Source: a virus (taxonomy: Duplodnaviria > Heunggongvirae > Uroviricota > Caudoviricetes). From it: DNA of 21,994 nt. The notes beneath the pieces are model-generated. The model made no database searches. It was not told where the DNA came from and worked only from the letters and a program-made list of their open reading frames with translations. This document shows positions 1 to 14,633 of this stretch, piece after piece. The first letter of the stretch is position 1, and the number at the start of each line of letters is the position of its first letter. The position numbers and the translations under genes are program-made. The stretch is from positions 1-21,994 of IMG/VR virus record IMGVR_UViG_2802429253_000005; one strand, written 5' to 3'.

Positions 1-158
1 TGTGAGTCAGCGAATTACATAGGGGCTCGCAGCTTTATGGCTGCAATAAAGCCGGATATAAAGCTGCAACCTACCGTCAATGTCAAAACAATGGAAGCTG
101 TGCAAAACGGGATGCGTTCATATAAATTCCCCATAGCTTCCCTACCAGGAAGGTAGGC

Positions 159-190
159 ATAAAAAACCAGCAATAACAGGCTGGTTTATA
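159..190 (-). terminator. Intrinsic terminator immediately downstream of the tRNA 3' end (minus-strand sense)
   Basis: Inverted repeat AAACCAGC (164-171) / GCTGGTTT (180-187) with an 8-nt loop; on the minus strand the stem is followed directly by a T-run (complement of A161-A166). Confidence 0.6.
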
Positions 191-199
191 TAATCTTTT

Positions 200-246
200 T
201 GGTCGGCACGAGAGGATTTGAACTTCCGATCCCCGACACCCCATGA
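200..246 (-). other. Partial tRNA gene, 3' ~46 nt only (tRNA-Pro-like); putative prophage attachment-site core
   Basis: Reverse complement reads CATGGGGTGTCGGGGATCGGAAGTTCAAATCCTCTCGTGCCGACCA: T-loop TTCAAATCC, acceptor 3' strand and terminal CCA. Sequence on the tRNA 5' side (247-290) has no matching acceptor strand (no CGGCACG), so the gene is not intact. tRNA-Pro identity is from memory of enterobacterial proL-type sequences, not from a search. Confidence 0.55.
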
Positions 247-540
247 CACTGCTTGTAAAACGCTGAGAGCCGCGCTATTGCTGGTTAAAAGCACTATTCA
301 TATGTATAAACAAACAGTGCTTTTTCAACAAAATCTGCTCTATATACTTCAATGGCTTAAGTGGTGGTTTCTCCCCATGCTTGGTAGGTATAATACCTTG
401 ATGCTAAAGTAGGTTACTCACTTGAAGAAACAGCTAGTTAGTATCAATTATGTTGCTCCAGCTGACTGAAAAAAGTTATCAATGATGCATGGAACATACG
501 CCCTTGAATTTTTCATTAGATTTTAGAAAAGGAATTGAGC

Positions 541-1422
541 ATGGGTTTAGCTGAGTGGTTTTGCGGATTTTGCTCCAATCTGACTGTAAAAGATGGTGGA
601 ACAATTTCAACTAGATATAGGAATATAACGAAGCGTTTAAATACGGATTTTTGGGATAGCAGTTCTGATACTTCTCATAGTCTCTACGTTGGATCATATG
701 GTCGGAACACAGCTACGCAAGGCTTGAGCGATCTGGATATGATTTTTCAGCTACCATATTCCGAGTATCAAAAATACAATAGCTACTTAGGAAATGGGCA
801 GTCAGCATTGCTTCAAGCGGTTAAGAGATCTATTGAAAAAACCTATGCTACCACTAGTATTAGAGGTGACGGTCAAGTGATCCTTGTACCGTTCAATGAT
901 GGAATTACATTTGAAGTCGTTCCAGCTTTCCTCAATGTTAGTGATAGTTACACATTTCCTGATGCGAACGGTGGTGGCCGTTGGAGGATTACAAATCCAA
1001 AGCCAGAAATTTCTGCAATGAGGTTAAGAAATAACATTACCAATAACAATTTGGTGCAACTTTGTAGAATGGCAAGAGCTTGGAAGCGTAAATGGGATGT
1101 ACCTATAAGTGGTTTACTCATTGATACGCTTGCGTATCAATTCATTGAAAATTGGGCGCATAGAGATAAGTCGTATCTTTACTACGATTTCATGAGTCGT
1201 GATTTCTTCAAATGGATGGCTGATCAAGATACGAGTAAGGAGTATTGGAAAGCGCCAGGAAGTGGTCAGTATGTCTATGGTAAAGGGCTTTTCCAATATA
1301 AAGCAAAACGGTGCTATAACATTTCACTCGAAGCTATAGAGCATGAAATGGCGACCCCAAAACGCGAATGGTCGGCTAAGCAAAAATGGCGGGAGATTTA
1401 TGGATCAACATTTCCAGACTAA
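541..1422 (+). CDS. Pol-beta superfamily nucleotidyltransferase, CD-NTase/SMODS-like (candidate signal synthase)
   Basis: ORF of 293 aa from ATG 541 (GGAA 6 nt upstream; the track's 535 start is TTG). Contains GSYGRNTATQGLSDLDMIF, i.e. a G[S]x9-13 Dh[DE]h nucleotidyltransferase active-site signature, with further acidic residues downstream (RGDGQ, FNDG). Size is typical of cGAS/DncV-like or SMODS enzymes, not of small MNT antitoxins. AT-rich codon usage. Confidence 0.6.
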   Translation: MGLAEWFCGFCSNLTVKDGGTISTRYRNITKRLNTDFWDSSSDTSHSLYVGSYGRNTATQGLSDLDMIFQLPYSEYQKYNSYLGNGQSALLQAVKRSIEKTYATTSIRGDGQVILVPFNDGITFEVVPAFLNVSDSYTFPDANGGGRWRITNPKPEISAMRLRNNITNNNLVQLCRMARAWKRKWDVPISGLLIDTLAYQFIENWAHRDKSYLYYDFMSRDFFKWMADQDTSKEYWKAPGSGQYVYGKGLFQYKAKRCYNISLEAIEHEMATPKREWSAKQKWREIYGSTFPD

Positions 1423-1981
1423 GGATACACCTGAATCTAGAAGGGTTTTAGAAGGGCAGATCAGAGAGTGTTATGGTCGGGTCGTTTACTCACATAAGAC
1501 GCATGAAAAATGCTCAGACATTCTCCTATCTCGACTATCTTCTATAAAGTTTTGGCAAATAATTCTCTCCGCCTTAACTACTGGAGGCTTTCTAGCAACT
1601 TTTTTCGGCGCGGGTGAAGTAGGCACGGGGGTTGGGATTGTTGTTTCAACACTGCTTCTCATTCTTAACGCTTATACCAAAGATTATGACCTTGGTGAGT
1701 TGGCGCAAAAACATAAGCAGGCTGCAAATGAGATCTGGTTAATCCGAGAAAAGTATTTATCATTGCTTACAGACTTAGCAATGGGTGAAAAACCAATCGA
1801 GCAATTGCAGTCAGAGCGGGATTCGTTACTCGAGAGTTTACATTCAGTGTATTCAGGCTCTCCTAGTACAACATTTGAAGCTTATAAAAAAGCACAGGAC
1901 GCATTAAAAAACAAAGAAGATTTAACATTTTCTGAAGAAGAAATAGATGCTTTTCTTCCCAAGGAACTGAAAAGAAGATAA
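1400..1981 (+). CDS. 2-TM membrane protein with helical C-terminal region (SLATT-like candidate effector)
   Basis: ATG at 1400 is in frame with track ORF 1343-1981 and overlaps the upstream gene's last 23 nt (coupled operon). Two adjacent hydrophobic helices (FWQIILSALTTGGFLATFF and VGTGVGIVVSTLLLILNAY) followed by a charged, helical tail. SLATT assignment is inference from architecture only. Confidence 0.5.
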   Translation: MDQHFQTKDTPESRRVLEGQIRECYGRVVYSHKTHEKCSDILLSRLSSIKFWQIILSALTTGGFLATFFGAGEVGTGVGIVVSTLLLILNAYTKDYDLGELAQKHKQAANEIWLIREKYLSLLTDLAMGEKPIEQLQSERDSLLESLHSVYSGSPSTTFEAYKKAQDALKNKEDLTFSEEEIDAFLPKELKRR

Positions 1982-1992
1982 ATATGTTGCGA

Positions 1993-2026
1993 GGGCAAAT
2001 ATAAATATTTGCCCCTATTTTTTTAT
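1993..2026 (+). terminator. Intrinsic terminator ending the nucleotidyltransferase/2-TM operon
   Basis: Perfect hairpin GGGCAAATA-TAAA-TATTTGCCC (1993-2014) followed by CTATTTTTTTATTT. Confidence 0.65.
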
Positions 2027-2122
2027 TTGTTAATATTAATTTTAGCAGGGCTAACTTTCCGGTAAGAATTAATTACTGGTCATATGCTCCTTGGTTAATA
2101 AAATTCTATGCCTTACTTGGTG

Positions 2123-2503
2123 CTAGCTGGCTTTAATTTCTCCATGTGGAACTACAACCCAGTCGATATGGTTTTGCGTGTAGATTTTAGTTGATTTCGC
2201 ATCGCTGTGTGCCATTCGTCCTTGTGGATCGATGCCCTGCTGATCAAAAAGATGTGCTGCTAAGGCGCGAATTTCGTGAAAGGTTGGCCTTTCATCCATC
2301 GGCCGTTTGTCATATAAACCCAGCTTGTCACGCGTAGCTGAAAACGACCGACTCAAATAGTCTGGTGCAACTTGAGTGGGATGAGAAACTTCTTTGCTGC
2401 GTTTAACCTGCCGTTCCGGGATCTGGTGAACGATAAATGGGCTGGCCACGTTATTGCGACTTTCATCAATGATCCGCTTCAATTCGTCACCAATCGGTGA
2501 CCG
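2123..2503 (-). pseudogene. int: Truncated lambda-family tyrosine integrase (C-terminal catalytic fragment only)
   Basis: Translation ends ...RPTFHEIRALAAHLFDQQGIDPQGRMAHSDAKSTKIYTQN..., matching the lambda Int C-terminus pattern (PTFHELRSLSARLY...GH.SD.M...Y) with the conserved Arg, His and Tyr. The frame hits a stop at 2504-2506 and the upstream sequence is unrelated, so ~230 N-terminal residues are missing. Confidence 0.8.
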
Positions 2504-2676
2504 CTACATGACGGGAACGCTTACAATCTATTAATGTCTACTAAGTGCTAGGAGCGGACATTGGTTAATGGGGATATGTCATTCGCCTGGGGCAGATCAA
2601 GAAAGTAAAAATCCCAGCTGTCGATAATTGGAATCCATGATAAGGTTTACGGGTAACTGATTGATAAATAAATTGA

Positions 2677-2874
2677 ATGGAATATGGAAAAATGACAAAG
2701 TCAATAGCGGATAAATCTGTAACTGATTTAACTAAAGAAATCGATAAATTAAAGAAAATTGCCAAAGATCTTGAAGATGTATTACCAGAAAAAACACCAC
2801 AAATTAATTCAGCAAAAAAAATCATTGACGATGCAATAAACGAAAGAGAAAAAGAGATAGAAAAGCGTTTCTAA
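2677..2874 (+). CDS. Small highly charged, probably coiled-coil protein (hypothetical)
   Basis: 65-aa ORF (alternative in-frame ATG at 2692) rich in K/E/D with heptad-like spacing; AT-rich; followed by a hairpin terminator. No recognisable family. Confidence 0.35.
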   Translation: MEYGKMTKSIADKSVTDLTKEIDKLKKIAKDLEDVLPEKTPQINSAKKIIDDAINEREKEIEKRF

Positions 2875-2897
2875 GCATAACAATAGACTAGTCTCTG

Positions 2898-2927
2898 GGA
2901 GGCCGTACCAGCGGCCTTTCTTCTTCC
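2898..2927 (+). terminator. Intrinsic terminator after the small coiled-coil ORF
   Basis: Hairpin AGGCCG-TACCAG-CGGCCT followed by TTCTTCTTCCC (moderately T-rich). Confidence 0.4.
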
Positions 2928-3240
2928 CGTAATCTAGTAAAATCGTCGGTTTTTAATCAATTAATTAACTCATCTATTACCAACTCCTGGTTGGTTGCTA
3001 ATGATGTCATAGTGTCGCTAACGGCCTGAATTACTCAGTCCGTTCTTCGCTCAAAGCGGGCTAGAAGGTTAGCTTGCGTCGGACTTGGCGTATTTAAAGA
3101 AGTGCTGGTGGTGACAGGTTATTATGTTCCATTTCTACAGAACAAAATCACAGAAACTATACCCAATAGTTGTATTGAATCACTGACGAGACAGCCTCAT
3201 ATTTATCAGGACTGGTGTACGTCCAATACAGGAGGTTGTG

Positions 3241-3330
3241 GTGCTGGTTCTCAAATGTGCGCTGGCTATTGCTGCTGTAATGGCAATTTATTGCCTTGCT
3301 GTTGTTCTTATGGATCGCCTTTCTGACTGA
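3241..3330 (+). CDS. Possible small hydrophobic membrane peptide (29 aa)
   Basis: Strong AGGAGG (3230-3235) 5 nt upstream of GTG 3241; frame reads (M)LVLKCALAIAAVMAIYCLAVVLMDRLSD, one predicted TM helix with a short charged tail. The track's Cys-rich 74-aa ORF is an alternative frame of the same DNA. Confidence 0.3.
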   Translation: MLVLKCALAIAAVMAIYCLAVVLMDRLSD

Positions 3331-3541
3331 TTTCATATTGGCGAGGTAACGGGAGTTAAGTAGAATGGCTGCGGGTGCTTGAGGCTATCTGTCTCAGGCA
3401 TGAACACCAAAGGCAGATAGAGAAAAGCCCCAGTTAACATTACGCGTCCTGCAAGACGCTTAACATTAATCTGAGGCTCAATCTATGAACGGCAAATCTA
3501 GGTTAGCCTCTTACGTGCCGAAAGGCAAGGAGAAGCAGGCT

Positions 3542-3697
3542 ATGAAGCAGCAAAAGGCGATGCTAATCGCCCTGATCGTCATCTGTTTAACCGTCATAGT
3601 GACGGCACTGGTAACGAGGAAAGACCTCTGCGAGGTACGAATCCGAACCGGCCAGACGGAGGTCGCTGTCTTCACAGCTTACGAACCTGAGGAGTAA
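3542..3697 (+). CDS. hok: Hok/Gef-family type I toxin (membrane-depolarising peptide)
   Basis: 51-aa product MKQQKAMLIALIVICLTVIVTALVTRKDLCEVRIRTGQTEVAVFTAYEPEE is near-identical to the HokD/RelF and Gef consensus as I recall it; GGAG-type RBS upstream of ATG 3542; the track ORF from 3485 is an in-frame upstream extension. Confidence 0.85.
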   Translation: MKQQKAMLIALIVICLTVIVTALVTRKDLCEVRIRTGQTEVAVFTAYEPEE

Positions 3698-3705
3698 GAG
3701 ACCAG

Positions 3706-3785
3706 GCGGGGGAGAAATCCCTCGCCACCTCTGATGTGTCAGGCATCCTCAATGCACCCACACTTAACCCGCTTCGGCGTTTTTC
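3706..3785 (+). other. Structured 3' UTR of the hok transcript (GNRA-loop hairpin plus weak UUCG-loop terminator)
   Basis: GGCGGGGGA-GAAA-TCCCTCGCC hairpin (3706-3727, one G-U pair) and AACCCGCTTCGGCGTTTTT (3766-3785). hok mRNAs are known to carry 3' fold-back elements. Confidence 0.45.
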
Positions 3786-3839
3786 CGTTGATTAACTCTA
3801 TTATCAGAGAACCGAACTTTTACTGATGGGGGCAGGGAG

Positions 3840-4232
3840 ATGAAGAAACTTGTTTTAGTTGCAGGTGTAATGATTGCAACAGTAATGTTGGGAGGGTGTG
3901 CAGCAAAGATCGATCCTGCGTTGAAAGCAGAAGCAATGAAACCACTAACATGTAAAGATGAAAAGCAATGTGACTTTTATTGGAAACGAGCGCAATTCTG
4001 GTTGGCTAATAATTCCTCATGGAAAATTCAAACGGCGACAGACACGCTAATTTCCACTTATAACCCTTCACCAAATAGCCCATTCCTCGCTTATCAAGTG
4101 AGTAAAATGCCAAATGAAGATGGATCTGCAAGAATTTTCATCAAGCCTTTTTGCGATAATATGTTTGGCTGTCAACCAAACCCCTATCAGGCAATTGTTT
4201 CCTTTAAAAACTTCGTTAAAACTGGGCAGTAA
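3840..4232 (+). CDS. Secreted lipoprotein, Cys-rich (hypothetical; possible moron)
   Basis: N-terminal signal peptide MKKLVLVAGVMIATVMLGGC with an L-G-G-C lipobox; GGGAG RBS 5 nt upstream; six cysteines in the mature part; own terminator downstream. Confidence 0.7.
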   Translation: MKKLVLVAGVMIATVMLGGCAAKIDPALKAEAMKPLTCKDEKQCDFYWKRAQFWLANNSSWKIQTATDTLISTYNPSPNSPFLAYQVSKMPNEDGSARIFIKPFCDNMFGCQPNPYQAIVSFKNFVKTGQ

Positions 4233-4361
4233 TGTATAGCGGGACGGTAAATTATTAGTGAAAACGCTGTAAACCCTATGGATTGAGTCAGGATTTAATC
4301 CGATAATTATTCTATCGTTCCTTTACAAGTCCGGCATATTACCTTCAGTTTGTTTTAGCAT

Positions 4362-4388
4362 ACCCGCTTCGGCGGGTTTTGTTTTTTT
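4362..4388 (+). terminator. Intrinsic terminator after the lipoprotein gene
   Basis: CCCGC-TTCG-GCGGG hairpin (4363-4376) followed by TTTTGTTTTTTT. Confidence 0.7.
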
Positions 4389-4459
4389 CTGGCATTCTGG
4401 TTTACAATACGCACGCCAGCCTGAACAACTGGCACCTGCTGCGCCAGCAGAGACAACCG

Positions 4460-4732
4460 ATGGCGCACAATACCAAACATCACAATTCTGATACCGACCT
4501 TGCCAGCAGGCACGGGCTGCGTTCTCACGCATTCAAATATGACTGGTATCAGCACGATCCCTGCACTGAAGAACAGGCCGAATGGCTGATTCATAACTAC
4601 CGCAGACGTGGGTATGAGTTTAAGAAAGCCCTTAGCCTCGACTACCGTCACTGGATAATCTACGTCAGGCTCCCTTATTCCGAACGCCCGCCGCGTCCAT
4701 CCCGCACATTCCAGCAACGCATCTGGAGGTAA
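4460..4732 (+). CDS. Hypothetical phage protein (90 aa), translationally coupled to the downstream DUF968-like gene
   Basis: ATG 4460 in frame with track ORF 4379-4732 (the 4379 start lies inside the terminator hairpin); stop TAA 4730-4732 sits just before GTG 4734; basic, His/Arg-rich product with no recognised motif. Confidence 0.4.
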   Translation: MAHNTKHHNSDTDLASRHGLRSHAFKYDWYQHDPCTEEQAEWLIHNYRRRGYEFKKALSLDYRHWIIYVRLPYSERPPRPSRTFQQRIWR

Positions 4733-4733
4733 C

Positions 4734-5789
4734 GTGCGGGTATTACTTCGACCTGTTCCGGTACCGGAACTTGGGCTGGTGGTGCTAAAGCCGGGCCGTG
4801 AATCCATGCAGGTATTTCATAATCCTCGAGTGCTGGTGGAACCGGAGCCAAAAAGCATGCGTAATCTGCCGTCCGGGGTCGTTCCTGCCGTTCGCCAGCC
4901 GCTGGCGGAGGATAAATCATTACTGCCATTTTTCAGCGACGAACGAGTGATTCGTGCTGCTGGTGGCGCTGGCGCATTGTCTGACTGGTTACTGCGCCAT
5001 GTTAAATCCTGCCAGTGGCCATACGGCGATTATCACCACAGTGAAACCGTCATTCACCGTTATGGCGCTGGCGCGATGGTGTTGTGCTGGCACTGCGACA
5101 ACCAGCTGCGTGACCAGACATCCGAATCACTCGAGCAACTTGCTCATCAAAACCTGTCAGCATGGATGATTGACGTCATACGCCATGCAATGAATGGCAC
5201 GCAGGAGCGGGAGTTATCGCTGGCTGAATTATCCTGGTGGGCGGTCTGCAATCAAGTGGCGGACGCGCTTCCGGAGGCAGTATTACGTCGTTCTTTGGGG
5301 TTACGTGCGGAAAAAATCCGCTCCTTGTACCGCGAAAGCGACATCGTACCGGGAGAGCAGACCGCCACCAGCATACTGAAGCAGCGCACAAAAAATCTTG
5401 CGCCGCTGCCTCACGCCCACCAGCAAAACCCGCCACAGGAAAAGACGGTGGTCAGCATTGCTGTTGATCCGGAGTCACCGGCTCAGTATCTCCAGCGCCA
5501 GAAACCACAACGGGAAGAGATGCCTGTATACACGCGCTGGGTAAAAACGCAGAAATGCATGACGTGCGGTAATCAGGCAGATGATCCGCATCACATCATT
5601 GGTCATGGACTGGGAGGGATGGGAACAAAGGCTGATGATTTGTTTGTTATTCCGCTGTGCCGTAAATGTCATAACGAACTGCACGCCGGGGTAAAAGATT
5701 TTGAAGAAAAACACGGCAGCCAGCTGTTGTTGCTGATTCGTTTTTTAATGCACGCGAGAAATTCGGGTGTCCTGAAGTGGAAAGCATAA
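4734..5789 (+). CDS. DUF968-like prophage protein with Cys/His zinc-binding clusters and a C-terminal HNH-like motif (YdfU-like)
   Basis: GTG 4734 preceded by GGAGG (4723-4727). Motifs CWHCDNQLRD and C-terminal CMTCGN...HHIIGHG...CRKCHNELH. Position directly upstream of rusA and Q matches lambdoid nin regions. Confidence 0.65.
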   Translation: MRVLLRPVPVPELGLVVLKPGRESMQVFHNPRVLVEPEPKSMRNLPSGVVPAVRQPLAEDKSLLPFFSDERVIRAAGGAGALSDWLLRHVKSCQWPYGDYHHSETVIHRYGAGAMVLCWHCDNQLRDQTSESLEQLAHQNLSAWMIDVIRHAMNGTQERELSLAELSWWAVCNQVADALPEAVLRRSLGLRAEKIRSLYRESDIVPGEQTATSILKQRTKNLAPLPHAHQQNPPQEKTVVSIAVDPESPAQYLQRQKPQREEMPVYTRWVKTQKCMTCGNQADDPHHIIGHGLGGMGTKADDLFVIPLCRKCHNELHAGVKDFEEKHGSQLLLLIRFLMHARNSGVLKWKA

Positions 5790-6170
5790 ATGACTGAGCG
5801 CATAGAATTTGTTTTGCCTTACCCGCCGTCGGTGAACACCTACTGGCGCCGTCGTGGTGGCGTATATTTTGTATCAAAAGCCGGTGAGCGTTATCGCCGG
5901 GATGTGGCGCTTATTGTTCGCCAGCAGCGACTGAAATTAAATCTGTCCGGTAGATTGGCAATCAGGATTATTGCAGAGCCACCGGATAAGCGCCGCCGCG
6001 ACCTGGACAATATCCTGAAGGCACCACTGGATGCACTGACACATGCAGGACTGCTTATCGACGATGAGCAGTTTGACGAAATCAATATAGTGCGCGGTCA
6101 GCTCGTTCCTGGTGGTCGACTGGGCGTGAAAATTTACGAAATAATGCATGACGGGCAGGTCAATAAATGA
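5790..6170 (+). CDS. rusA: Holliday-junction resolvase RusA
   Basis: 126-aa product with PYPPSVNTYWRRRGG...RRRDLDNILKAPLDAL...DDEQ, matching RusA family motifs (PPS.N.Y, RRRDLDN, catalytic acidic residues). ATG overlaps the upstream stop (TAAATG). Confidence 0.85.
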   Translation: MTERIEFVLPYPPSVNTYWRRRGGVYFVSKAGERYRRDVALIVRQQRLKLNLSGRLAIRIIAEPPDKRRRDLDNILKAPLDALTHAGLLIDDEQFDEINIVRGQLVPGGRLGVKIYEIMHDGQVNK

Positions 6171-6988
6171 AGCTGGAAGATTTACCGAAATACTACTCCC
6201 CAAAATCGCCTGGCCTGACTGATGCATCCGTCTCGACGTCAAAAGATACGCTGAGTATCACTGATGTGATGGCTGCGCAGGGTATGACACAAAACCGTGC
6301 TGAGATGGGATTTTCTGCGTTCCTGGGGAAAATGGGCATTAGTATGAATGACAGGGCGCGGGCAACAGAATTACTGGCAGATTATGCATTAAGTCAGTGC
6401 GATCGCGTGGCGGCGTTGAGAAAACTTCCGGCAGAAATAAAACCGGCAGTGATGCGCATTATGGCTTCGTACGCTTTTGAGGATTATGCCCGCAGTGCAG
6501 CTAGTAAAAAACAGTGCCCTTGTTGCGGCGGGAAAAAATTTATTGAAAGCGTAGTTTTTACAAACAAGGTCCAGTATCCGGATGGCAAGCCGCCAGTATG
6601 GGCAAAGTGTACAAAAGGCGTGTATCCGTCTTACTGGGAAGAATGGAAAAAAGTCCGGGAAGTGGTAAAAGTTGCCTGTCCTGAATGCGGGGGAAAGGGT
6701 GAGGTCTCCACCGCCTGTAAGGATTGCCGTGGGCGTGGTGTAGCCATTCATCGTGAAGAGTCAGAAAAACGGGGCATGCCTTTTATCAGGGACTGCCAGC
6801 GTTGTGGCGGTCGTGGCTATGAAAGACTGCCGTCGACGGAGGCATTTAATGCCATATGTGAGGTGACAAATCAGATAACACGCGCGTCATGGGAAAAAAC
6901 GGTTAAGCAATTCTATGACACTCTGGTGGTTCGGTTTGACATTGAAGAGGCATGGGCGGAGCGGCAGTTAAAAAAGGTAACCAGATAA
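6167..6988 (+). CDS. Late-gene antiterminator Q-like protein with four CxxCxGxG zinc-finger repeats
   Basis: Gene sits immediately upstream of a promoter/terminator pair and the lysis cassette; ATGA overlap with the rusA stop. Repeats CPCCGGKK, CPECGGKG, CKDCRGRG, CQRCGGRG. Function is assigned from position, not from recognised homology. Confidence 0.55.
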   Translation: MKLEDLPKYYSPKSPGLTDASVSTSKDTLSITDVMAAQGMTQNRAEMGFSAFLGKMGISMNDRARATELLADYALSQCDRVAALRKLPAEIKPAVMRIMASYAFEDYARSAASKKQCPCCGGKKFIESVVFTNKVQYPDGKPPVWAKCTKGVYPSYWEEWKKVREVVKVACPECGGKGEVSTACKDCRGRGVAIHREESEKRGMPFIRDCQRCGGRGYERLPSTEAFNAICEVTNQITRASWEKTVKQFYDTLVVRFDIEEAWAERQLKKVTR

Positions 6989-6993
6989 CAAGG

Positions 6994-7022
6994 TTGATTT
7001 TTCCGGAATCTGTGGTAAATTC
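6994..7022 (+). promoter_or_regulatory. Candidate late promoter (pR'-like)
   Basis: TTGATT (6994-6999), 15-nt spacer, then TGgTAAATT (7012-7020, extended -10 like), just downstream of the Q-like gene. Confidence 0.4.
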
Positions 7023-7068
7023 GCCCTAACGATGGGCGTTTTATGCCTGACGTTAGAAGAATTTTTAC

Positions 7069-7094
7069 AACCCGCCGCCGTGCGGGTTTTTTTG
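7069..7094 (+). terminator. Intrinsic terminator (tR'-like) shortly downstream of the candidate late promoter
   Basis: AACCCGC-CGCCGT-GCGGGTT hairpin followed by TTTTTT; the promoter-short transcript-terminator arrangement is that of lambdoid Q-controlled late transcription. Confidence 0.6.
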
Positions 7095-7373
7095 TCTGCA
7101 CAACAGGTAAGAGCACTGAACCCGCAGACCTCGCGGAATTGGTGAAAGGTGCCGCGCAGTGCTCTTTCCGTTGTGCTGAATTAAGCGAATGCCGGAAGTA
7201 GAACCGGATCAACAAATGCGTACAGGCGTCATCGCCGCCCAGCAACAGCACAACCCAAACTGAGCCGTAGCCACTGGCTGTCCTGAATTCATCAGTGATA
7301 GTTATGCTGCGGCCTTCTTTTTCCCATTCCCAATATAAGAACTACGCAATCCGTTACTTGCGGAGGCGTTGCT

Positions 7374-7589
7374 ATGAAATCAATGGACAAAATCTCAACT
7401 GGCATTGCCTACGGAACATCCGCTGGTAGTGCGGGATACTGGTTTTTGCAGTGGTTGGATCAGGTCAGTCCGTCACAGTGGGCTGCAATTGGAGTGCTTG
7501 GAAGCCTTGTGTTGGGTTTTCTCACTTATCTGACAAATCTGTATTTCAAAATCAGAGAAGACAGACGAAAGGCTGCGAGAGGTGAATAA
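7374..7589 (+). CDS. S: Class II holin, phage 21 S-type pinholin with dual-start motif
   Basis: [28 protein letters not shown]...[12 protein letters not shown] matches S21 (Met1 and Met4 give the antiholin and holin forms); two TM segments. Confidence 0.85.
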
Positions 7590-8086
7590 TGCCTCCATCA
7601 TTACGAAAAGCCGTTGCTACGGCTATTGGTGGCGGGGCTATTGCTATAGCATCTGTGTTAATCACTGGACCAAGTGGTAACGATGGTCTGGAAGGTGTCA
7701 GTTACATACCATACAAAGATATTGTTGGTGTATGGACTGTATGTCACGGACACACCGGAAAAGACATCATGCTCGGTAAAACGTATACCGAAGCAGAATG
7801 CAAAGCCCTCCTGAATAAAGACCTTGCCACGGTCGCCAGACAAATTAACCCGTACATCAAAGTCGATATACCGGAAACAATGCGCGGCGCTCTTTACTCG
7901 TTCGTCTATAACGTGGGTGCTGGCAATTTCAGAACATCGACGCTTCTTCGCAAAATCAACCAGGGCGATATCAAAGGTGCATGTGATCAACTACGTCGCT
8001 GGACATACGCTGGTGGTAAGCAATGGAAAGGTCTCATGACTCGCCGTGAGATTGAGCGTGAAGTCTGTTTGTGGGGGCAACAATGA
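7589..8086 (+). CDS. R: SAR endolysin (T4-lysozyme-like muramidase with N-terminal signal-anchor-release domain)
   Basis: N-terminal Gly/Ala-rich weak TM segment [20 protein letters not shown]; remainder matches phage 21 R lysozyme as recalled; ATG overlaps the holin stop (TAATG). Confidence 0.85.
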
Positions 8087-8550
8087 GCAGAGTAACCGCG
8101 ATTACCTCCGCTCTGGTTATCTGCATCATCGTCTGCCTGTCGTGGGCTGTTAATCATTACCGTGATAACGCCATCGCTTACAAAGAGCAGCGCGACAAAA
8201 ACGCCAGAGAGTTGAAGTTGGCGAACGCCACCATCGCTGACATGCAGCAGCGTCAGCGTGATGTTGCTGCGCTCGATGCAAAGTACTCGAGAGAATTAGC
8301 TAATGCGAAAGCTGAAAATGAAACTCTGCGCGCTGATGTTGCCGCTGGTCGTAAGCGCCTGCGGGTCAATGCCAGTTGCTACGCAGCCGTGCGTGAATCC
8401 ACCGGACCCACCAGCGTGGATAATGCAACCATCCCCCGACTGGCAGACACCGCTGAACGGGATTATTTCACCCTCAGAGAGCGGCTGATGACGATGCAGA
8501 TGCAACTGGAAGGGGCACAGGAGTATATCCGCACTCAGTGCATTAAGTAG
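8083..8550 (+). CDS. Rz: Rz-like inner-membrane spanin (i-spanin)
   Basis: ATG 8083 overlaps the endolysin stop (ATGA); N-terminal TM helix followed by a long coiled-coil periplasmic domain; Rz1 is embedded in the +1 frame. Confidence 0.8.
8303..8488 (+). CDS. Rz1: Rz1-like outer-membrane lipoprotein spanin (o-spanin), embedded within Rz
   Basis: [21 protein letters not shown]... with lipobox and proline-rich mature region ([27 protein letters not shown]), very similar to lambda Rz1. Confidence 0.8.
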
Positions 8551-8592
8551 CCTTTTTATCGTGGTAAACATTTCGCAGGGTATGAGGTATTT

Positions 8593-8943
8593 ATGCCATC
8601 ACTAATCCCACGTGCCTGCCGTAAGCGTGGATGTGCAGGTACAACCACAGACAGTTCTGGTTACTGCGATAAACATCGTGGCGAAGGATGGGTACAGCAT
8701 CAACGCGGACTGAGTCGCCACCAGCGTGGCTATGGCTCGAAATGGGATGCCATACGTGCGCGCATACTGAAGCGTGATAATCATCTGTGTCAAAACTGCC
8801 TGCGCAATGGGAGAGCCGTTGAAGCCAGAACTGTGGACCACATCATTCCGAAAGCTCATGGTGGCACAGATGCAGACAGTAACCTGCAGAGTCTGTGCTG
8901 GCCCTGCCATAAAGCAAAAACAGCGCGCGAACGCATCAATTGA
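8593..8943 (+). CDS. HNH endonuclease associated with the terminase
   Basis: 116 aa with CxxC...HxxxxxxGG...N...CxxCH pattern (DHIIPKAHGG, CWPCH); located just upstream of terS as in HK97-like cos phages. Confidence 0.8.
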   Translation: MPSLIPRACRKRGCAGTTTDSSGYCDKHRGEGWVQHQRGLSRHQRGYGSKWDAIRARILKRDNHLCQNCLRNGRAVEARTVDHIIPKAHGGTDADSNLQSLCWPCHKAKTARERIN

Positions 8944-9090
8944 TAACAGCTCCCATCTGCAGGGGAGGGGCGGGTCAAATCTCTGCAACCCTGGCTGTTC
9001 AGTACCGCCGCCTGACCTTTCCTCGCATCGCCGCAGGTTCGAAAACTTTTTTTTGGAATGTGATTAAATGATTGATAGGTAAAACCGATT

Positions 9091-9573
9091 ATGTCAGGAC
9101 CCCCGAAAACCCCGCCACGCCTGCATTTGATACGAGGCAACCCCTCAAAGCGCCCCGTTAAAGACCCCAAAAAAGCCGCTAAAAAGGATGAAAAAGGTCT
9201 CCCTAAAATTCCGCAACATTTAGGGGCGCAGGGGAAGTACTGGTTCAGGCGAATGGCGGAAGAACTGAATGCGGAAGGGATCATTTCTCAGCTTGATGCG
9301 CGTGCACTCGAGTTACTGGTGGAAGCCTACACCGAATACCGGCATCACTGCGAAACACTCGATGTTGAGGGGTACACCTACCGCACGGAAACGCAGAACG
9401 GTGATGTGCTGATTAAGGCACACCCGGCTGCTGCGATGAAAGCGGATGCCTGGAAGCGGATCCGGGCGATGCTTGCAGAATTTGGTATGTCACCGGCAAG
9501 CCGGGCGAAAGTAAATACCGCCGGACCGGATGATGTTGATCCGCTGGCAGAGCTTTTAAAAGCGAGAGACTGA
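9091..9573 (+). CDS. terS: Terminase small subunit (P27/HK97-type)
   Basis: 160 aa, basic N-terminus; immediately upstream of and overlapping the large terminase gene (TGATG). Confidence 0.7.
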   Translation: MSGPPKTPPRLHLIRGNPSKRPVKDPKKAAKKDEKGLPKIPQHLGAQGKYWFRRMAEELNAEGIISQLDARALELLVEAYTEYRHHCETLDVEGYTYRTETQNGDVLIKAHPAAAMKADAWKRIRAMLAEFGMSPASRAKVNTAGPDDVDPLAELLKARD

Positions 9574-11330
9574 TGGCAAAAGTGGCTGACGGGATCCGCT
9601 ACGCCGAACGTGTTGTTGCAGGAGAAATAGTCGCTGGCGAATTTGTCCGTCTGGCCTGCCAGCGTTTTCTTGATGATCTGAAGTATGGCGAAGAGCGGGG
9701 GATTTATTTTAGTGAACCCCGTGCGCAGCACATCCTGAATTTCTACAAATTTGTGCCTCATGTGAAAGGGGCGCTGGCAGGCCAGCCCATTGAATTGATG
9801 GACTGGCATGTATTTATCCTCATTAATATTTTTGGTTTTGTCATTCCGCTGGTGAATGAAGAGACCGGGGAAGTTGTCATGCGCAGCGATGGCAGCGGAC
9901 GCCCGGTGATGGTGCGCCGGTTCCGGACGGCGTACAACGAAGTTGCCCGTAAAAACGCAAAATCAACCCTGTCATCGGGTATCGGTCTGTATATGACGGG
10001 GGCAGATGGTGAAGGCGGGGCTGAGGTGTATTCAGCCGCAACCACGCGTGACCAGGCCAGAATTGTGTTTGAAGACGCCAAAAATATGGTCAGAAAAGCC
10101 CGGTCGACACTCGGGCGGTTGTTTGATTTCAACAAGCTGGCGATTTACCAGGAGCAGAGCGCATCAAAATTTGAACCGCTTTCCTCGGATGCAAACAACC
10201 TGGACGGTCTGAACATCCACTGCGCCATTATTGATGAGCTGCATGCTCATAAAACCCGTGACGTGTGGGACGTTCTGGAAACGGCAACCGGTGCCCGTCT
10301 GCAGTCCCTGTTATTTGGTATCACCACGGCGGGCTTTAACAAGGAAGGGATTTGTTACGAGCAACGCGATTACGCCATCAAGGTATTGCGAGGCTATAAC
10401 AGTGACGTGGAGGGCGCGGTAAAAGATGACTCCTACTTTGCGATTATTTACACGCTCGATGAGGGAGATGATCCGTTTGATGAAACGGTCTGGCAGAAAG
10501 CGAATCCGGGCCTGGGCATCTGTAAACGCTGGGATGATCTGCGTCGTCTGGCGAAAAAAGCGAAGGAGCAGGTCTCGGCGCGGGTGAATTTTTTCACCAA
10601 ACACATGAATGTGTGGGTCACTGCCGAATCGGCCTGGATGGACATGATTAAGTGGGAGAAGTGCGAATATATTGCTCCACAGCATGAGCTGAAAACGTAT
10701 CCCATGTGGGTCGGTGTCGACCTTGCTCATAAGATTGATATCTGCGCGGCGGCAAAACTCTGGCGAACCGATAACGGGCATGTTCATGCCGATTTTAAAT
10801 TCTGGCTTCCGGAAGGGCGACTGGATCGGTGTTCACGGCAGCAGGCAGAACTTTACCGGAAGTGGGCGGAGATGGATAAGCTCATCCTGACGGATGGTGA
10901 TGTTATCGATCATGCTCAGATAAAAAGTGACCTACTGGAATGGATTGGCGGTGAAAACCTGAGGGAACTGGGATTTGACCCGTGGAGCGCAATGCAGTTC
11001 AGTCTGGCGCTGGCTGAAGAAGGGATACCGCTGGTGGAAGTTCCGCAGACGGTCCGCAATCTGTCAGAGGCCATGAAGGAAACGGAATCACTGGTCTATG
11101 CCGGGCGTTTCCATCACAGCAATCATCCGGTCATGAACTGGATGATGTCTAACGTTACGGTGAAACCGGACAAAAACGACAATATTTTCCCGAATAAATC
11201 CACGCCGGAAGCCAAAATCGACGGTCCTGTTGCGATGTTTACAGCAATGAGCCGGATGCTGGTCAATGGCGGTGAACCGGAGCCGGATCTGTCTGAACAC
11301 CTGATTAGTGTTGGTATCCGCTCGCTTTAA
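9573..11330 (+). CDS. terL: Terminase large subunit (ATPase plus nuclease)
   Basis: 585 aa; position and size; Walker-like motifs (e.g. [10 protein letters not shown] as Walker B-like); HK97-type gene order. Confidence 0.85.
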
Positions 11331-11341
11331 CCGAGGGCATT

Positions 11342-11524
11342 ATGTTTCTGATAATTCTCACGCCACTGGTGGGTGTGCTGGGGGCGCTTTTGCTGTCGTA
11401 TGGTGCCTGGCTGATTTATCCCCCGTCGGGTTTTGTTGTTGCCGGGGCGCTGTGTCTGTGCTGGTCGTGGCTGGTTGCGCGTTATCTCGATCGCGGTCAG
11501 CGGGTCGCCTCCGGAGGTGAGTAA
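11342..11524 (+). CDS. Small membrane protein (2 predicted TM helices), hypothetical
   Basis: GAGGG RBS upstream of ATG 11342; stop overlaps the portal ATG (TAATG), so it is embedded in the packaging operon; very hydrophobic 60-aa product. Confidence 0.45.
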
Positions 11525-12765
11525 TGTTTTTCCAGGGGCTTTTTCAACGCAAAAATAACACTCCCGTTACAACACCCGGGATGCTTGCGGAAGAGTTGGG
11601 ATTGTCATACGACACCTATACCGGAAAGCGGATCAGCAGTCAGCGGGCCATGCGGCTGACGGCGGTGTATTCCTGCGTCAGAGTGCTGGCGGAGTCTGTT
11701 GGTATGCTGCCCTGTAGCCTCTACAAAATCACCGGCACCCTTAAAACACGGGCGGTGGATGAACGACTGCATAAGCTGATTTCGGCAAAACCCAATGGCT
11801 ACATGACACCGCAGGAATTCTGGGAACTGGTCATTGTCTGCCTGTGTTTGCGGGGGAATTTTTACGCTTACAAGGTGAAGGCGCTGGGAGAAGTGGTGGA
11901 GCTTCTTCCGATAGATCCGGGTTGTGTGGAGCCGAAGCTGAACTGTCAGTGGCAGCCGGTTTATCAGGTGACGTTTCCGGATGGTTCCGTGGATGTGCTG
12001 ACCCAGGATGAAATCTGGCATGTGCGTACTCTGACGCTGGACGGACTGGTCGGGCTGAATCCCATTGCGTATGCGCGTGAGGCCATTTCACTGGCAGCGG
12101 CAACCGAGGAGCACGGCGCCAGGTTGTTTGGTAACGGTGCTGTGACATCCGGTGTGTTGCGTACGGAACAAAAGCTCACGCCGGATGCTTATGAGCGCAT
12201 GAAGAGGGATTTTGAGGAGCGTCATCTTGGGCTGGGTAATGCGCACCGTCCGATGATTCTGGAAATGGGGCTGGACTGGAAGCCGGTGGCACTGAATGCC
12301 GAGGACAGCCAGTTCCTGGAAACCCGCAAGTTTCAGTTGGAAGAAATCTGTCGTCTTTTCCGCGTGCCACTGCATATGGTGCAGAACACTGACCGCGCCA
12401 CCTTCAACAATATTGAAGAGCTGGGGCTTGGCTTCATTAACTATTCCCTTGTGCCGTATCTGACCCGTATTGAACAGCGGATCAATACAGGGCTGGTGAG
12501 GGAGAGTAAAAAGGGAAAATTTTACGCCAAATTTAATGCCGGGGCGTTGTTGCGTGGTGACATGAAATCCCGCTTTGAAGCGTATGCCACGGGGATCAAC
12601 TGGGGGATTTATTCCCCTAATGACTGCCGTGATCTGGAAGATATGAATCCCCGACCGGGCGGTGATGTGTATCTGACACCGATGAACATGACCACCAGTC
12701 CCTCTGCTGGCGATGACAACGGTAAGAAAAAGGAGAGTGGAGATGCAGACAAAACAGCGTCTTGA
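11524..12765 (+). CDS. Portal protein (HK97 family)
   Basis: 413 aa; GGAGGTGA RBS; lies between terminase and prohead protease; acidic C-terminus. Confidence 0.85.
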   Translation: MFFQGLFQRKNNTPVTTPGMLAEELGLSYDTYTGKRISSQRAMRLTAVYSCVRVLAESVGMLPCSLYKITGTLKTRAVDERLHKLISAKPNGYMTPQEFWELVIVCLCLRGNFYAYKVKALGEVVELLPIDPGCVEPKLNCQWQPVYQVTFPDGSVDVLTQDEIWHVRTLTLDGLVGLNPIAYAREAISLAAATEEHGARLFGNGAVTSGVLRTEQKLTPDAYERMKRDFEERHLGLGNAHRPMILEMGLDWKPVALNAEDSQFLETRKFQLEEICRLFRVPLHMVQNTDRATFNNIEELGLGFINYSLVPYLTRIEQRINTGLVRESKKGKFYAKFNAGALLRGDMKSRFEAYATGINWGIYSPNDCRDLEDMNPRPGGDVYLTPMNMTTSPSAGDDNGKKKESGDADKTAS

Positions 12766-13393
12766 TATACCGCTGAACCTGAAATCCGTCAGTGATTCCG
12801 GGGAATTTGAAGGTTACGGTTCTGTTTTTGGTGTTAAGGACAGCCACGATGATGTGGTGGTCCCCGGAGCCTTTACCACAACACTCCAGAAATGGAGCGA
12901 AAAAAAGGCGCTGCCTGCGTTGCTCTGGCAGCACCGCATAGATGAGCCCATCGGTGTGTACACCGAAATGAAAGAAGATGATGTCGGGCTTTATGTCAGG
13001 GGACGATTACTCATTGATGATGATCCCCTGGCAAAACGTGCACATGCCCATATGAAGGCCGGTTCTTTAACCGGCCTTTCTATTGGCTACATCCTGAAAG
13101 ACTGGGAGTACGACCGTGAAAAAGGGGTATTCCTGCTGAAAGAGATCGACCTGTGGGAGGTCAGTCTGGTGACGTTTCCTTCCAATGATGAGGCTCGCAT
13201 CAGCGATGTGAAAAATGCGCTGGCGCGTGGGGAGATCCCTGATCAGAAAATCATTGAGCGGGTCCTGCGCGATGTTGGACTTTCGCGAACCCAGGCCAAA
13301 GCATTCATGGCCGGGGGATACGGCGCTTTATCCCTGCGTAATGCTGAGGATGTGGATGCCGCACTGAATGCATTGAAAAATCTTAAATTTTAA
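12743..13393 (+). CDS. Prohead maturation protease (HK97 family)
   Basis: ATG 12743 preceded by AGGAGAG; lies between portal and major capsid protein; ~216 aa. Confidence 0.8.
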   Translation: MQTKQRLDIPLNLKSVSDSGEFEGYGSVFGVKDSHDDVVVPGAFTTTLQKWSEKKALPALLWQHRIDEPIGVYTEMKEDDVGLYVRGRLLIDDDPLAKRAHAHMKAGSLTGLSIGYILKDWEYDREKGVFLLKEIDLWEVSLVTFPSNDEARISDVKNALARGEIPDQKIIERVLRDVGLSRTQAKAFMAGGYGALSLRNAEDVDAALNALKNLKF

Positions 13394-13406
13394 CCAGGAG
13401 TAAATA

Positions 13407-14633
13407 ATGGCTGTTGATATTAAAGACGTTGAACAGGTCGCGCAGGATTTGCAGCAGAAGTTTGACGATTTTAAGGCAAAAAACGACAAGCGCATTGACG
13501 CGATCGAACAGGAAAAAAGCAAGCTGGCCGAACAGGTGGAAAGCCTGAACGGGCAAATCAGCGAGCTGGAGAACCTGAAAAGCGACCTGGAAAAAGAGCT
13601 GGCAGACATCAAGCGTCCGGCAGGCGGCACGCAAAATAAAGTTGCCGGTGAACACAAAGAAGCGTTTATCGGATTTATGCGCAAGGGGCGTGAAGACGGT
13701 CTGCGTGAACTTGAACGTAAGGCGCTTCAGGTAGGTAATGATGAAGATGGTGGTTATGCCATTCCGGAAGAACTGGATCGTACCATCCTGACGCTGCTGA
13801 AAGATGAGGTGGTGATGCGCCAGGAAGCCACTGTGATCACCCTCGGTGGCTCGGATTATAAAAAACTGGTGAATCTGGGCGGCACTAAGTCCGGATGGGT
13901 GGGGGAAACGGATACGCGTCCGGAAACCGCCACCTCAAAACTGGGGCTGATTGAACCTTTTATGGGGGAAATCTACGGCAACCCGCAGGCTACCCAGAAA
14001 ATGCTCGATGATGCTTTTTTCAATGTGGAAGACTGGATCAACAGTGAACTGGCGCTGGAATTTGCCGAACAGGAAGAAATTGCCTTTACCAGTGGCGACG
14101 GCAGCAAAAAACCAAAAGGTTTTCTGGCTTATGAGTCCACCGATGAAGATGACAAGACCCGTGCGTTTGGCAAACTTCAGCACATCGCTTCCGGTTCGGC
14201 TTCTGGCGTGACCGCTGATGCGATCATTAAACTGATTTACACCCTGCGCAAGGCGCACCGTAGCGGCGCGAAGTTCATGATGAATAACAGCAGCCTGTTT
14301 GCCATTCGCCTGCTGAAGGATAACGACGGAAATTATCTGTGGCGTCCGGGCATTGAGCTGGGTCAGCCTTCTTCACTGGCGGGGTATGGCATCGTTGAGA
14401 ATGAGCAGATGCCGGATATTGCTGCCGATGCAAAAGCCATTGCGTTTGGTAACTTCAAACGCGGCTATACCATTGTTGATCGCATCGGTACCCGTATCCT
14501 GCGTGACCCGTACACCAACAAACCGTTTGTGGGCTTTTATACCACCAAGCGAACCGGCGGTATGCTGGTGGATTCTCAGGCGATTAAGCTGATGAAAATT
14601 GGGGCCGCAACCCGCCAGAAAGCCGCGGCGTAA
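13407..14633 (+). CDS. Major capsid protein (HK97 fold) with N-terminal coiled-coil scaffolding (delta) domain
   Basis: 408 aa; AGGAG RBS; N-terminal ~100 aa strongly coiled-coil (EQEKSKLAEQVESLNGQISELENLKSDLEKELADIK); follows the protease. Confidence 0.9.
   Translation: MAVDIKDVEQVAQDLQQKFDDFKAKNDKRIDAIEQEKSKLAEQVESLNGQISELENLKSDLEKELADIKRPAGGTQNKVAGEHKEAFIGFMRKGREDGLRELERKALQVGNDEDGGYAIPEELDRTILTLLKDEVVMRQEATVITLGGSDYKKLVNLGGTKSGWVGETDTRPETATSKLGLIEPFMGEIYGNPQATQKMLDDAFFNVEDWINSELALEFAEQEEIAFTSGDGSKKPKGFLAYESTDEDDKTRAFGKLQHIASGSASGVTADAIIKLIYTLRKAHRSGAKFMMNNSSLFAIRLLKDNDGNYLWRPGIELGQPSSLAGYGIVENEQMPDIAADAKAIAFGNFKRGYTIVDRIGTRILRDPYTNKPFVGFYTTKRTGGMLVDSQAIKLMKIGAATRQKAAA

Follow-up and report, generated by a model that had tools for sequence, protein, structure and literature searches.

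A probable type I CBASS operon in the attP–int slot of a fossil integration module within a Qin-like prophage

Hotspots beside an integrase gene have been described for several prophages, P4 and P2 among them: at the P4 psu-int locus, the P2 loci and the cI-int locus of Vibrio K139-like phages, conserved integrase-side flanks enclose highly variable cargo in which anti-phage systems abound (Rousset et al. 2022, PMC9122126). Among the defences found in E. coli, type I systems of anti-phage signalling based on cyclic oligonucleotides (CBASS) composed of a CD-NTase and a SLATT6 effector restrict phages of five families, up to at least 10,000-fold (bioRxiv 10.1101/2023.05.21.541620), and Panoptes (OptS/OptE) is a two-gene pairing of a cyclase with a two-transmembrane (2-TM) effector that kills by inner-membrane disruption (PMC12657218). 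Here we describe a locus at the left end of a 21,994-nucleotide (nt) stretch of viral DNA (positions 1 to 21,994 of IMG/VR record IMGVR_UViG_2802429253_000005, referred to as the window), in which two cargo genes are enclosed by a phage attachment site (attP) and the 3′ end of an integrase gene (int). The joint explanation that accounts best for the observations, and which we consider probable, is that an intact-looking CBASS operon occupies the attP–int slot of an integration module that is now a fossil inside a Qin-like lambdoid prophage. The slot, which recurs in phages that use the tRNA gene proL, would be one more integrase-adjacent hotspot.

Family matches identify the segment from 384 to 2122 as a two-gene type I CBASS operon with a SMODS CD-NTase and a SLATT_4 effector. 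An earlier note on this DNA had placed a nucleotidyltransferase/2-TM cassette between an att core and an integrase stop at 2123; all of these are present where it put them, and Pfam and PADLOC now identify the cassette as a CBASS cyclase and a SLATT_4 effector. The cyclase matches Pfam SMODS (2.1e-50) and, over its full length, the PADLOC oligonucleotide cyclase model PDLC00786 (4.6e-144). It carries the motif residues G51-S52, D64-x-D66 and E125, of which GS and DxD are invariant and E125 is present in 8/9 homologues from distant phyla, and in an alignment with the catalytic strand of the nearest solved structure (6p8u/6p82, molecule name ‘Nucleotidyltransferase’, which we take to be P. aeruginosa CdnD) E125 is paired with a catalytic Asp. 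The effector matches Pfam SLATT_4 (4.4e-74), the PADLOC 2TM effector model PDLC00696 (9.9e-85) and, above its cut-off, the NCBIfam SLATT_4 model, and has a hydrophobic hairpin at approximately residues 50–92. The cyclase and effector genes share 23 nt, and both have a ribosome-binding site: AAGGA, 9 nt ahead of the ATG of the cyclase gene, and GGGAG for the effector gene. A perfect -10 hexamer (TATAAT, 389–394) with a weak -35 can be read by eye in the leader, and the operon ends at a terminator with a 9-bp stem, GGGCAAATA...TATTTGCCC, followed by CTATTTTTTT.

The immediate neighbours of the cassette are the P arm of attP on one side and the terminator and int remnant on the other. Neither Cap2/Cap3 (E1/E2/JAB) nor HORMA/TRIP13 genes were found among the neighbours, using the list of open reading frames (ORFs) and family searches, and the system is therefore a minimal type I CBASS. 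In this it resembles EcCdnF04-SLATT6 and EcCdnF05-SLATT6 of E. coli, which are also two-gene systems of a CD-NTase and a small SLATT effector without ancillary regulators. It differs from them in that its effector belongs to SLATT family 4, and in that the match of its cyclase to the nearest structure (6p8u/6p82) reaches just 7e-9.

The composition of the cassette sets it apart from the rest of the window. GC content is 0.389 for 384–2122 but averages 0.523 in the structural genes; none of the 1739-bp intervals from base 3800 onward falls under 0.486. GC at third codon positions is 0.34–0.35 in the insert versus 0.54 ± 0.05, and codon adaptation to the structural module is 0.55–0.62 versus 0.73 ± 0.04. 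The earlier note had called the insert AT-rich, and both GC content and codon adaptation are indeed lower in it than in the structural module.

To the left of the cassette, positions 200–247 correspond, in reverse complement, to the final 48 nt of the E. coli tRNA-Pro(GGG) gene proL, from the anticodon loop to CCA. The core differs from proL by two C>T substitutions, at 224 and 230, and one of them disrupts a T-stem pair; the functional attP of phages Eeyore and Flotzy has the same sequence as the bacterial site attB throughout the first 44 nt of the core. A 19-nt string from the core occurs once in the window against an expectation of 0, and neither a second copy of the core nor, using ARAGORN, a whole tRNA was found in the window. 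The P′ arm contains TTCCC(C) arm-type repeats at 127–132 and 138–142, with a third lying beyond the insertion sequence (IS) in intact copies of the block. In those copies the repeats are at -85/-74/-63 from the core, versus -86/-75/-64 in the attP of Eeyore and Flotzy, and the 11-nt phasing is the same in intact block copies and free phages. The 150 nt outside the core in IS-free copies align to phage arms with scores of 31–37 (Eeyore 37; shuffles 5.7 ± 2.0), whereas the K-12 chromosomal flank of proL scores 5.0 (shuffles 6.4 ± 2.2), which is chance level and rules out a host origin (the yejO side of proL) for the left flank. The repeats, the phage-arm scores and the chance-level host flank together indicate that the site is an attP, complete with P′ arm, core and P arm, that has not recombined, and not a prophage–host junction. 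The P′ arm also includes a hairpin and T-run at approximately 161–187, read from the sequence, which would provide the tRNA terminator once integrated, and the P arm ends in TTTCTCCCCAT (368–378), resembling an arm-type site.

The attP is damaged on its outer side. An IS110-family element ends at 124/125 and splits the P′ arm between the first and second repeats, with the loss of one repeat; positions 1–126/135 match many unrelated E. coli sites at 92–100%, each just 3′ of an IS110-family transposase gene, and IS-free copies of the block run leftward with different sequence. The right end of the IS abuts TTCCCCATAG in the window and (A)TCCCATGAC or CCCATGAC in two other genomes, where an IS110-family element lies between tail genes L and K (L003 and L004, ~2690–4130; L numbers denote loci in the comparison set). 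The shared letters suggest that this element targets a CCCAT-like motif.

To the right of the cassette only a stump of int is left. It is identical at 116/124 positions to residues 269–392 of the 392-residue integrase in the proL prophage of EC20-4B-2, and it still has the HxxR box and the region of the catalytic Tyr but has lost the arm-binding and core-binding domains. In-frame stops lie upstream of the remnant, and RefSeq labels the same stretch ‘recombinase, frameshifted, missing N-terminus’. The tRNA fragment that the earlier note had assigned as an att core (200–246) is thus real, as is the integrase-family ORF with its stop at 2123–2125, but the ORF holds merely the last 124 of 392 codons and the att is not a live prophage end. 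The latter implication is contradicted by the 124-codon int, the phage P′ arm, the two core substitutions and the IS.

Live relatives of the module are available for comparison. Full-length integrases with 70–86% nucleotide identity to the remnant are found in prophages located between yejO and proL, with the early genes yfdR, yfdQ and yfdP. In Eeyore and Flotzy there are 137 nt between the end of the core (44 nt) and the int stop, with the P arm ending 3 nt before the stop, and an empty Eeyore-like slot is present in 8 E. coli genomes. In seven prophages the same distance measures 1141, 1159, 1283, 1381, 1518, 3157 or 3923 nt, and in the window it is 1878 nt. Alignment to relatives places the edges of the cargo at 384 and 2122, with 1.74 kb between the att side and the integrase stop: P-arm homology stops at 376–383 in seven proL prophages and two free phages, and homology to the window in every relative is confined to 161/196–376/383 and 2123/2136–2398/2510. 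Flanks are conserved and the cargo is different in all of the loci compared (10/10). No other gap is left free in the integration module of this phage family.

Lambda has a similarly small gap between the core and the int stop, and carries the accessory genes of its b region on the P′ side of attP. The proL module is like lambda in that int is transcribed toward attP, arm-type sites are present on both arms, and in live relatives ~137 nt separate the core from the int stop. It is unlike lambda in carrying its cargo between attP and int, hence on the P side of the site, and in its integrase family and target (tRNA-Pro). The reading of the insert as a moron in the int–att junction, put forward in the earlier note, is supported by these relatives, in which the slot is either empty at 137 nt or filled with other cargo. 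Relatives do not carry the same genes at this position, the composition is not native-like and the core assignment is right; the terminator, the foreign composition and the absence or replacement in relatives all fit a self-contained, foreign insert, and the foreign composition and variable presence by which a moron is recognised are both observed.

The other filled slots carry a variety of genes. An ATPase resembling AbiL (1.6e-64) occurs with a partner gene and, in addition, a DUF4760 protein. A further cargo is a DUF2971/PDC-S31 protein (5e-22); a RelA/SpoT-like match with a small neighbouring gene is weak and only reaches the Pfam cut-off (6e-06), and a TPR match with a 127-residue neighbour is weak as well. 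Three proteins of ~283–289 residues lack a convincing family match, one of them having a single weak, sub-threshold Pfam hit. PADLOC models are matched in only 3/8 filled slots (CBASS, AbiL-like and PDC-S31), a sample too small to reveal enrichment. As in the P4 and P2 hotspots, conserved flanks, in this case the attP P arm and the 3′ end of int, surround differing cargo (CBASS, AbiL-like, PDC-S31, weak RelA/SpoT-like and unknown genes). Unlike them, the slot belongs to proL phages with an Eeyore/Flotzy-type integrase, it runs from the last arm site of attP to the int stop, and the copy in the window is detached from a working integrase.

Two relatives display further features of the slot. In Ec42 (L009, 4458–4807) and about a dozen similar genomes there is a second C-terminal int remnant inside the slot, 68% identical to that of the window, with a cargo set on either side of it and a full-length integrase downstream; slot turnover can therefore leave integrase stumps. 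An int breakpoint at a pseudo-core was suspected in the window from the 8-mer CATGACGG (2507–2514), which is also found across the proL anticodon region, and a CTACAT(G/C)AC-like motif after the Ec42 remnant had prompted suspicion of an Int-mediated deletion. The idea was dropped, as the bases are diverged int, the Ec42 remnant is ~40 nt longer, and the 8-mer recurs at 6147. In E. coli APEC O78 (L105, 3137–3214) RefSeq calls a whole 78-nt tRNA-Pro at the yejO-side junction of a proL prophage, a reading of the sequence which implies that the P arm there completes a tRNA-like gene beside the core.

The position of the block in other genomes suggests that the module now travels as accessory DNA. 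The block forms a ~3.3 kb mosaic segment inside a Qin-like lambdoid prophage, with the replication genes on one side and the hok/sok-nin-Q region on the other. The IS is missing from a contig of GCA_002965185.1 (L115) that shares 99.95% identity with 125–14232; on this contig exo, ydfD, dicB, cI, cro, ydaT, a gene for replication and DUF977 are upstream of the block, and hok is downstream. This internal position in an IS-free relative means that the block is not the boundary of the window’s prophage. LR-24 and several further genomes keep the same order, and the LR-24 prophage has a separate full-length integrase next to rspB. Relatives of the backbone without the block have other nin-type genes there and align from 3338 onward only. 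K-12 Qin shares the backbone (dicB, ydfA-C, hokD, ydfU and Q) and likewise has a variable interval between the immunity/replication genes and hokD, but its dicC-hokD interval (ydfX-ydfW-flxA-ydfV-relBE) contains no block or anything related to it; YdfW is unrelated to the int remnant, and comparison of the remnant with what we take to be the ‘intK/ydfW’ fragment of Qin revealed no homology in DNA or protein.

Other strains have the same block (125–3056) at the distal end of lambda-like prophages, where it follows a gene for tail-fibre assembly; copies in this tail-fibre context share sequence up to 3056, and those in the Qin setting up to 3779. The copy of strain 82.0311 is located after stf/tfa next to bioA, corresponding to the position of the lambda b region. 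The tail-fibre-context copies have a gene on the opposite strand to the right of the block for a 280-residue protein with pP_pnuc_1/pP_pnuc_2 matches, a predicted pPIWI-associated nuclease (8832–9676 of L019, L020, L023 and L024, and also L002, 15251–16093), which may be a second defence-type cargo.

The cassette is present in 47/5426 complete E. coli genomes, and int is truncated in the same way in all of the E. coli copies inspected. Both ORFs are 98.9–99.9% identical in 46 of the 47 carriers, spanning both contexts, and in the remaining one (CH4804) an IS cuts the SLATT gene; the exact protein is found in 2565 blocks of the assembly collection. A megablast search of sequenced phages yielded no close DNA relative of the cassette, and at the protein level the phage matches are two Listeria phages only, at 44%. 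The cyclase is 59–86% identical in more than 80 species (L025–L104) of Enterobacterales, Chloroflexota, Planctomycetota, Cyanobacteria, Nitrospirota and others, a conservation across phyla that, as judged from these alignments, is unusually high for a defence gene, and plasmids of Microcystis, Enterococcus, Macrococcoides and others carry the NTase-SLATT pair too. A search of the literature for WP_000521772, WP_000371964 and a proL/yejO hotspot found nothing.

Table. Features at the left end of the window (positions in the window)
Feature	Position	Strand	Basis or remark
IS110-family element, right (3′) end	1..124	+	1-126/135 matched downstream of IS110 transposase genes
P′ arm remnant of attP	125..199	-	arm repeats and hairpin
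att core, proL 3′ 48 nt	200..247	-	46/48 to tRNA-Pro(GGG)
P arm of attP	248..383		conserved with live relatives
Cassette leader	384..540	+	-10 hexamer, weak -35, ribosome-binding site read by eye
CD-NTase (SMODS), 293 residues	541..1422	+	Pfam, PADLOC
SLATT_4 two-TM effector, 193 residues	1400..1981	+	Pfam, PADLOC, NCBIfam
Intrinsic terminator	1993..2024	+	9-bp stem followed by CTATTTTTTT; faces convergent int remnant
Integrase pseudogene, C-terminal third only	2123..2520	-	matches residues 269-392/392
Remaining mosaic segment, AT-rich, 65-residue ORF inside	2521..3337		travels with block; Qin-like backbone restarts ~3338

Other explanations of the locus can be weighed against these observations. 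If 200–246 were a working att junction and 2123 the end of a working integrase, with CBASS as a moron inside a live module, the presence of a core and an integrase-family ORF in lambda-like orientation, with int transcribed toward att, would be accounted for; we give this hardly any credence, given that int comprises residues 269–392 only, that the outer flank is phage P′ arm rather than host and is cut by the IS, that the block is 3′ of the immunity/replication genes in the 99.95% identical genome and more than 10 others, and that the LR-24 prophage has its own integrase. A satellite or defence islet that integrated independently into the prophage and is now a remnant would match the compact size (~3 kb), the defence cargo next to an integrase fragment and the occurrence at two prophage positions. 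It is nonetheless very unlikely, as an uninterrupted run of P′ arm, core and P arm shows that the att site has not undergone Int-mediated integration; moreover, the full-length integrases of this family sit in full-size prophages and in the free phages Eeyore and Flotzy rather than in islets, and the window contains no second core copy. The cassette might also be an inert hitch-hiker, silent or non-functional DNA riding on lambdoid mosaic segments, which would agree with the failure to detect a consensus promoter and with the decay of the neighbouring attP and int. We regard this as very unlikely, since the ORFs are intact, with catalytic and TM features, and have stayed nearly identical among the carriers while int decayed, and since the exact protein is so widespread in the assembly collection.

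A regulator gene is absent here, which would be compatible with an inverse (guard) mode of signalling or with a non-defence, addiction-like role. Two-gene operons of a cyclase and a 2-TM effector can operate in the inverse mode, as Panoptes does (PMC12657218): a nucleotide made constitutively by the cyclase keeps the membrane effector in check until phage nucleotide sponges free it. Panoptes, however, combines an mCpol cyclase with an S-2TM-beta effector, whereas the window encodes a SMODS CD-NTase and a SLATT_4 protein that match PADLOC CBASS models at full length, and the E. coli CD-NTase-SLATT6 operons act as broad CBASS defences. Since neither protein family is one used by Panoptes, inverse signalling is not indicated, and we consider roles of this type very unlikely as well.

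Several observations weigh against our preferred explanation, an intact-looking CBASS operon in an attP–int slot that is now a fossil. The cassette never lies beside a full-length integrase among the copies inspected, for which reason its capture in a live int–att slot is deduced from the relatives; the window itself starts inside an IS, and the DNA of its own genome to the left of the IS is outside the sequence seen. The third acidic residue of the cyclase is Glu where Asp is usual, with Gln in one homologue, and the match to the NCBIfam model CBASS_cyclase_b (NF041117) is 116.9 bits over residues 13–229, compared with an equivalog cut-off of 200, so by its score the cyclase is a relative of that group and not a member. 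For the effector, a search for a solved structure of the SLATT_4 family found none, and we know of no direct biochemical study of SLATT_4. The tested E. coli CBASS systems use SLATT6, while the effector in the window is SLATT_4; expression of this operon and defence by it are predictions, and the cassette promoter is presumptive only, because a consensus scan of the region upstream (384–540) gave no full promoter.

By analogy with the E. coli systems we infer an anti-phage role for this operon, acting through infection-triggered cyclic oligonucleotide signalling. As expected for the families concerned, infection would activate the CD-NTase to make a cyclic oligonucleotide, which would bind the cytoplasmic part of the SLATT protein and cause it to oligomerise; the oligomer would then permeabilise the inner membrane, and the lysogen under infection would die or arrest before the invader could mature. 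As to its history, the cassette was presumably captured in the int–attP slot of a proL-type phage. Recombination would later have removed the 5′ two-thirds of int, with the block either moved or left as accessory DNA in lambdoid prophages, where it was presumably kept for the defence it conferred.

Additional small genes lie within and to the right of the block. The 65-residue ORF (2677–2874) is Lys/Glu-rich, has a GC content of 0.28 and accompanies the block in every context, with matches to Pfam, PADLOC and NCBIfam that are all sub-threshold. Directly right of the block is a complete hok/sok type I toxin-antitoxin locus (3373–3697), 97% identical to K-12 hokD, with an Rfam match to sok of 110 bits at 3373–3547, the sole Rfam match in a scan of 1–4300, and a Hok/Gef match (3e-23) at 3485/3542–3697. 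Immediately upstream of sok is a strongly hydrophobic 30-residue ORF (3238–3329; VVLVLKCALAIAAVMAIYCLAVVLMDRLSD) without a family match, which could be either another small membrane toxin or spurious. Between hok and the DUF968 gene is a predicted 130-residue lipoprotein (3840–4232; GC 0.39), also without a family match and found in only some related prophages.

Across E. coli phages the same two flanks, the P arm of attP and the int 3′ end, hold nothing, CBASS, AbiL-like, PDC-S31-like or unknown genes, and with the same flanks and differing cargo the slot could therefore be mined for new defence genes. We suggest tentatively, and at somewhat less than even odds, that the gap between the P arm and the int stop is an undescribed, base-precise defence hotspot of proL phages, that its uncharacterised cargo comprises new anti-phage genes, and that the fossil blocks are homology-armed cassettes. 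If so, the 283-residue and 289-residue proteins without Pfam or PADLOC hits, the TPR gene and its 127-residue partner, and the DUF4760 protein would be new anti-phage genes, and fossil blocks, in which ~330 nt of attP and ~400 nt from the 3′ end of int frame the cargo, could pass it to incoming related phages through recombination. For annotation, a tRNA fragment adjoining an integrase ORF need not mean a prophage boundary. Defence cargo can outlast the integration module, as the CBASS genes are intact while attP and int have decayed and the block has shifted between prophage positions, and the locus illustrates at base resolution how temperate phages gather defence genes and transmit them.

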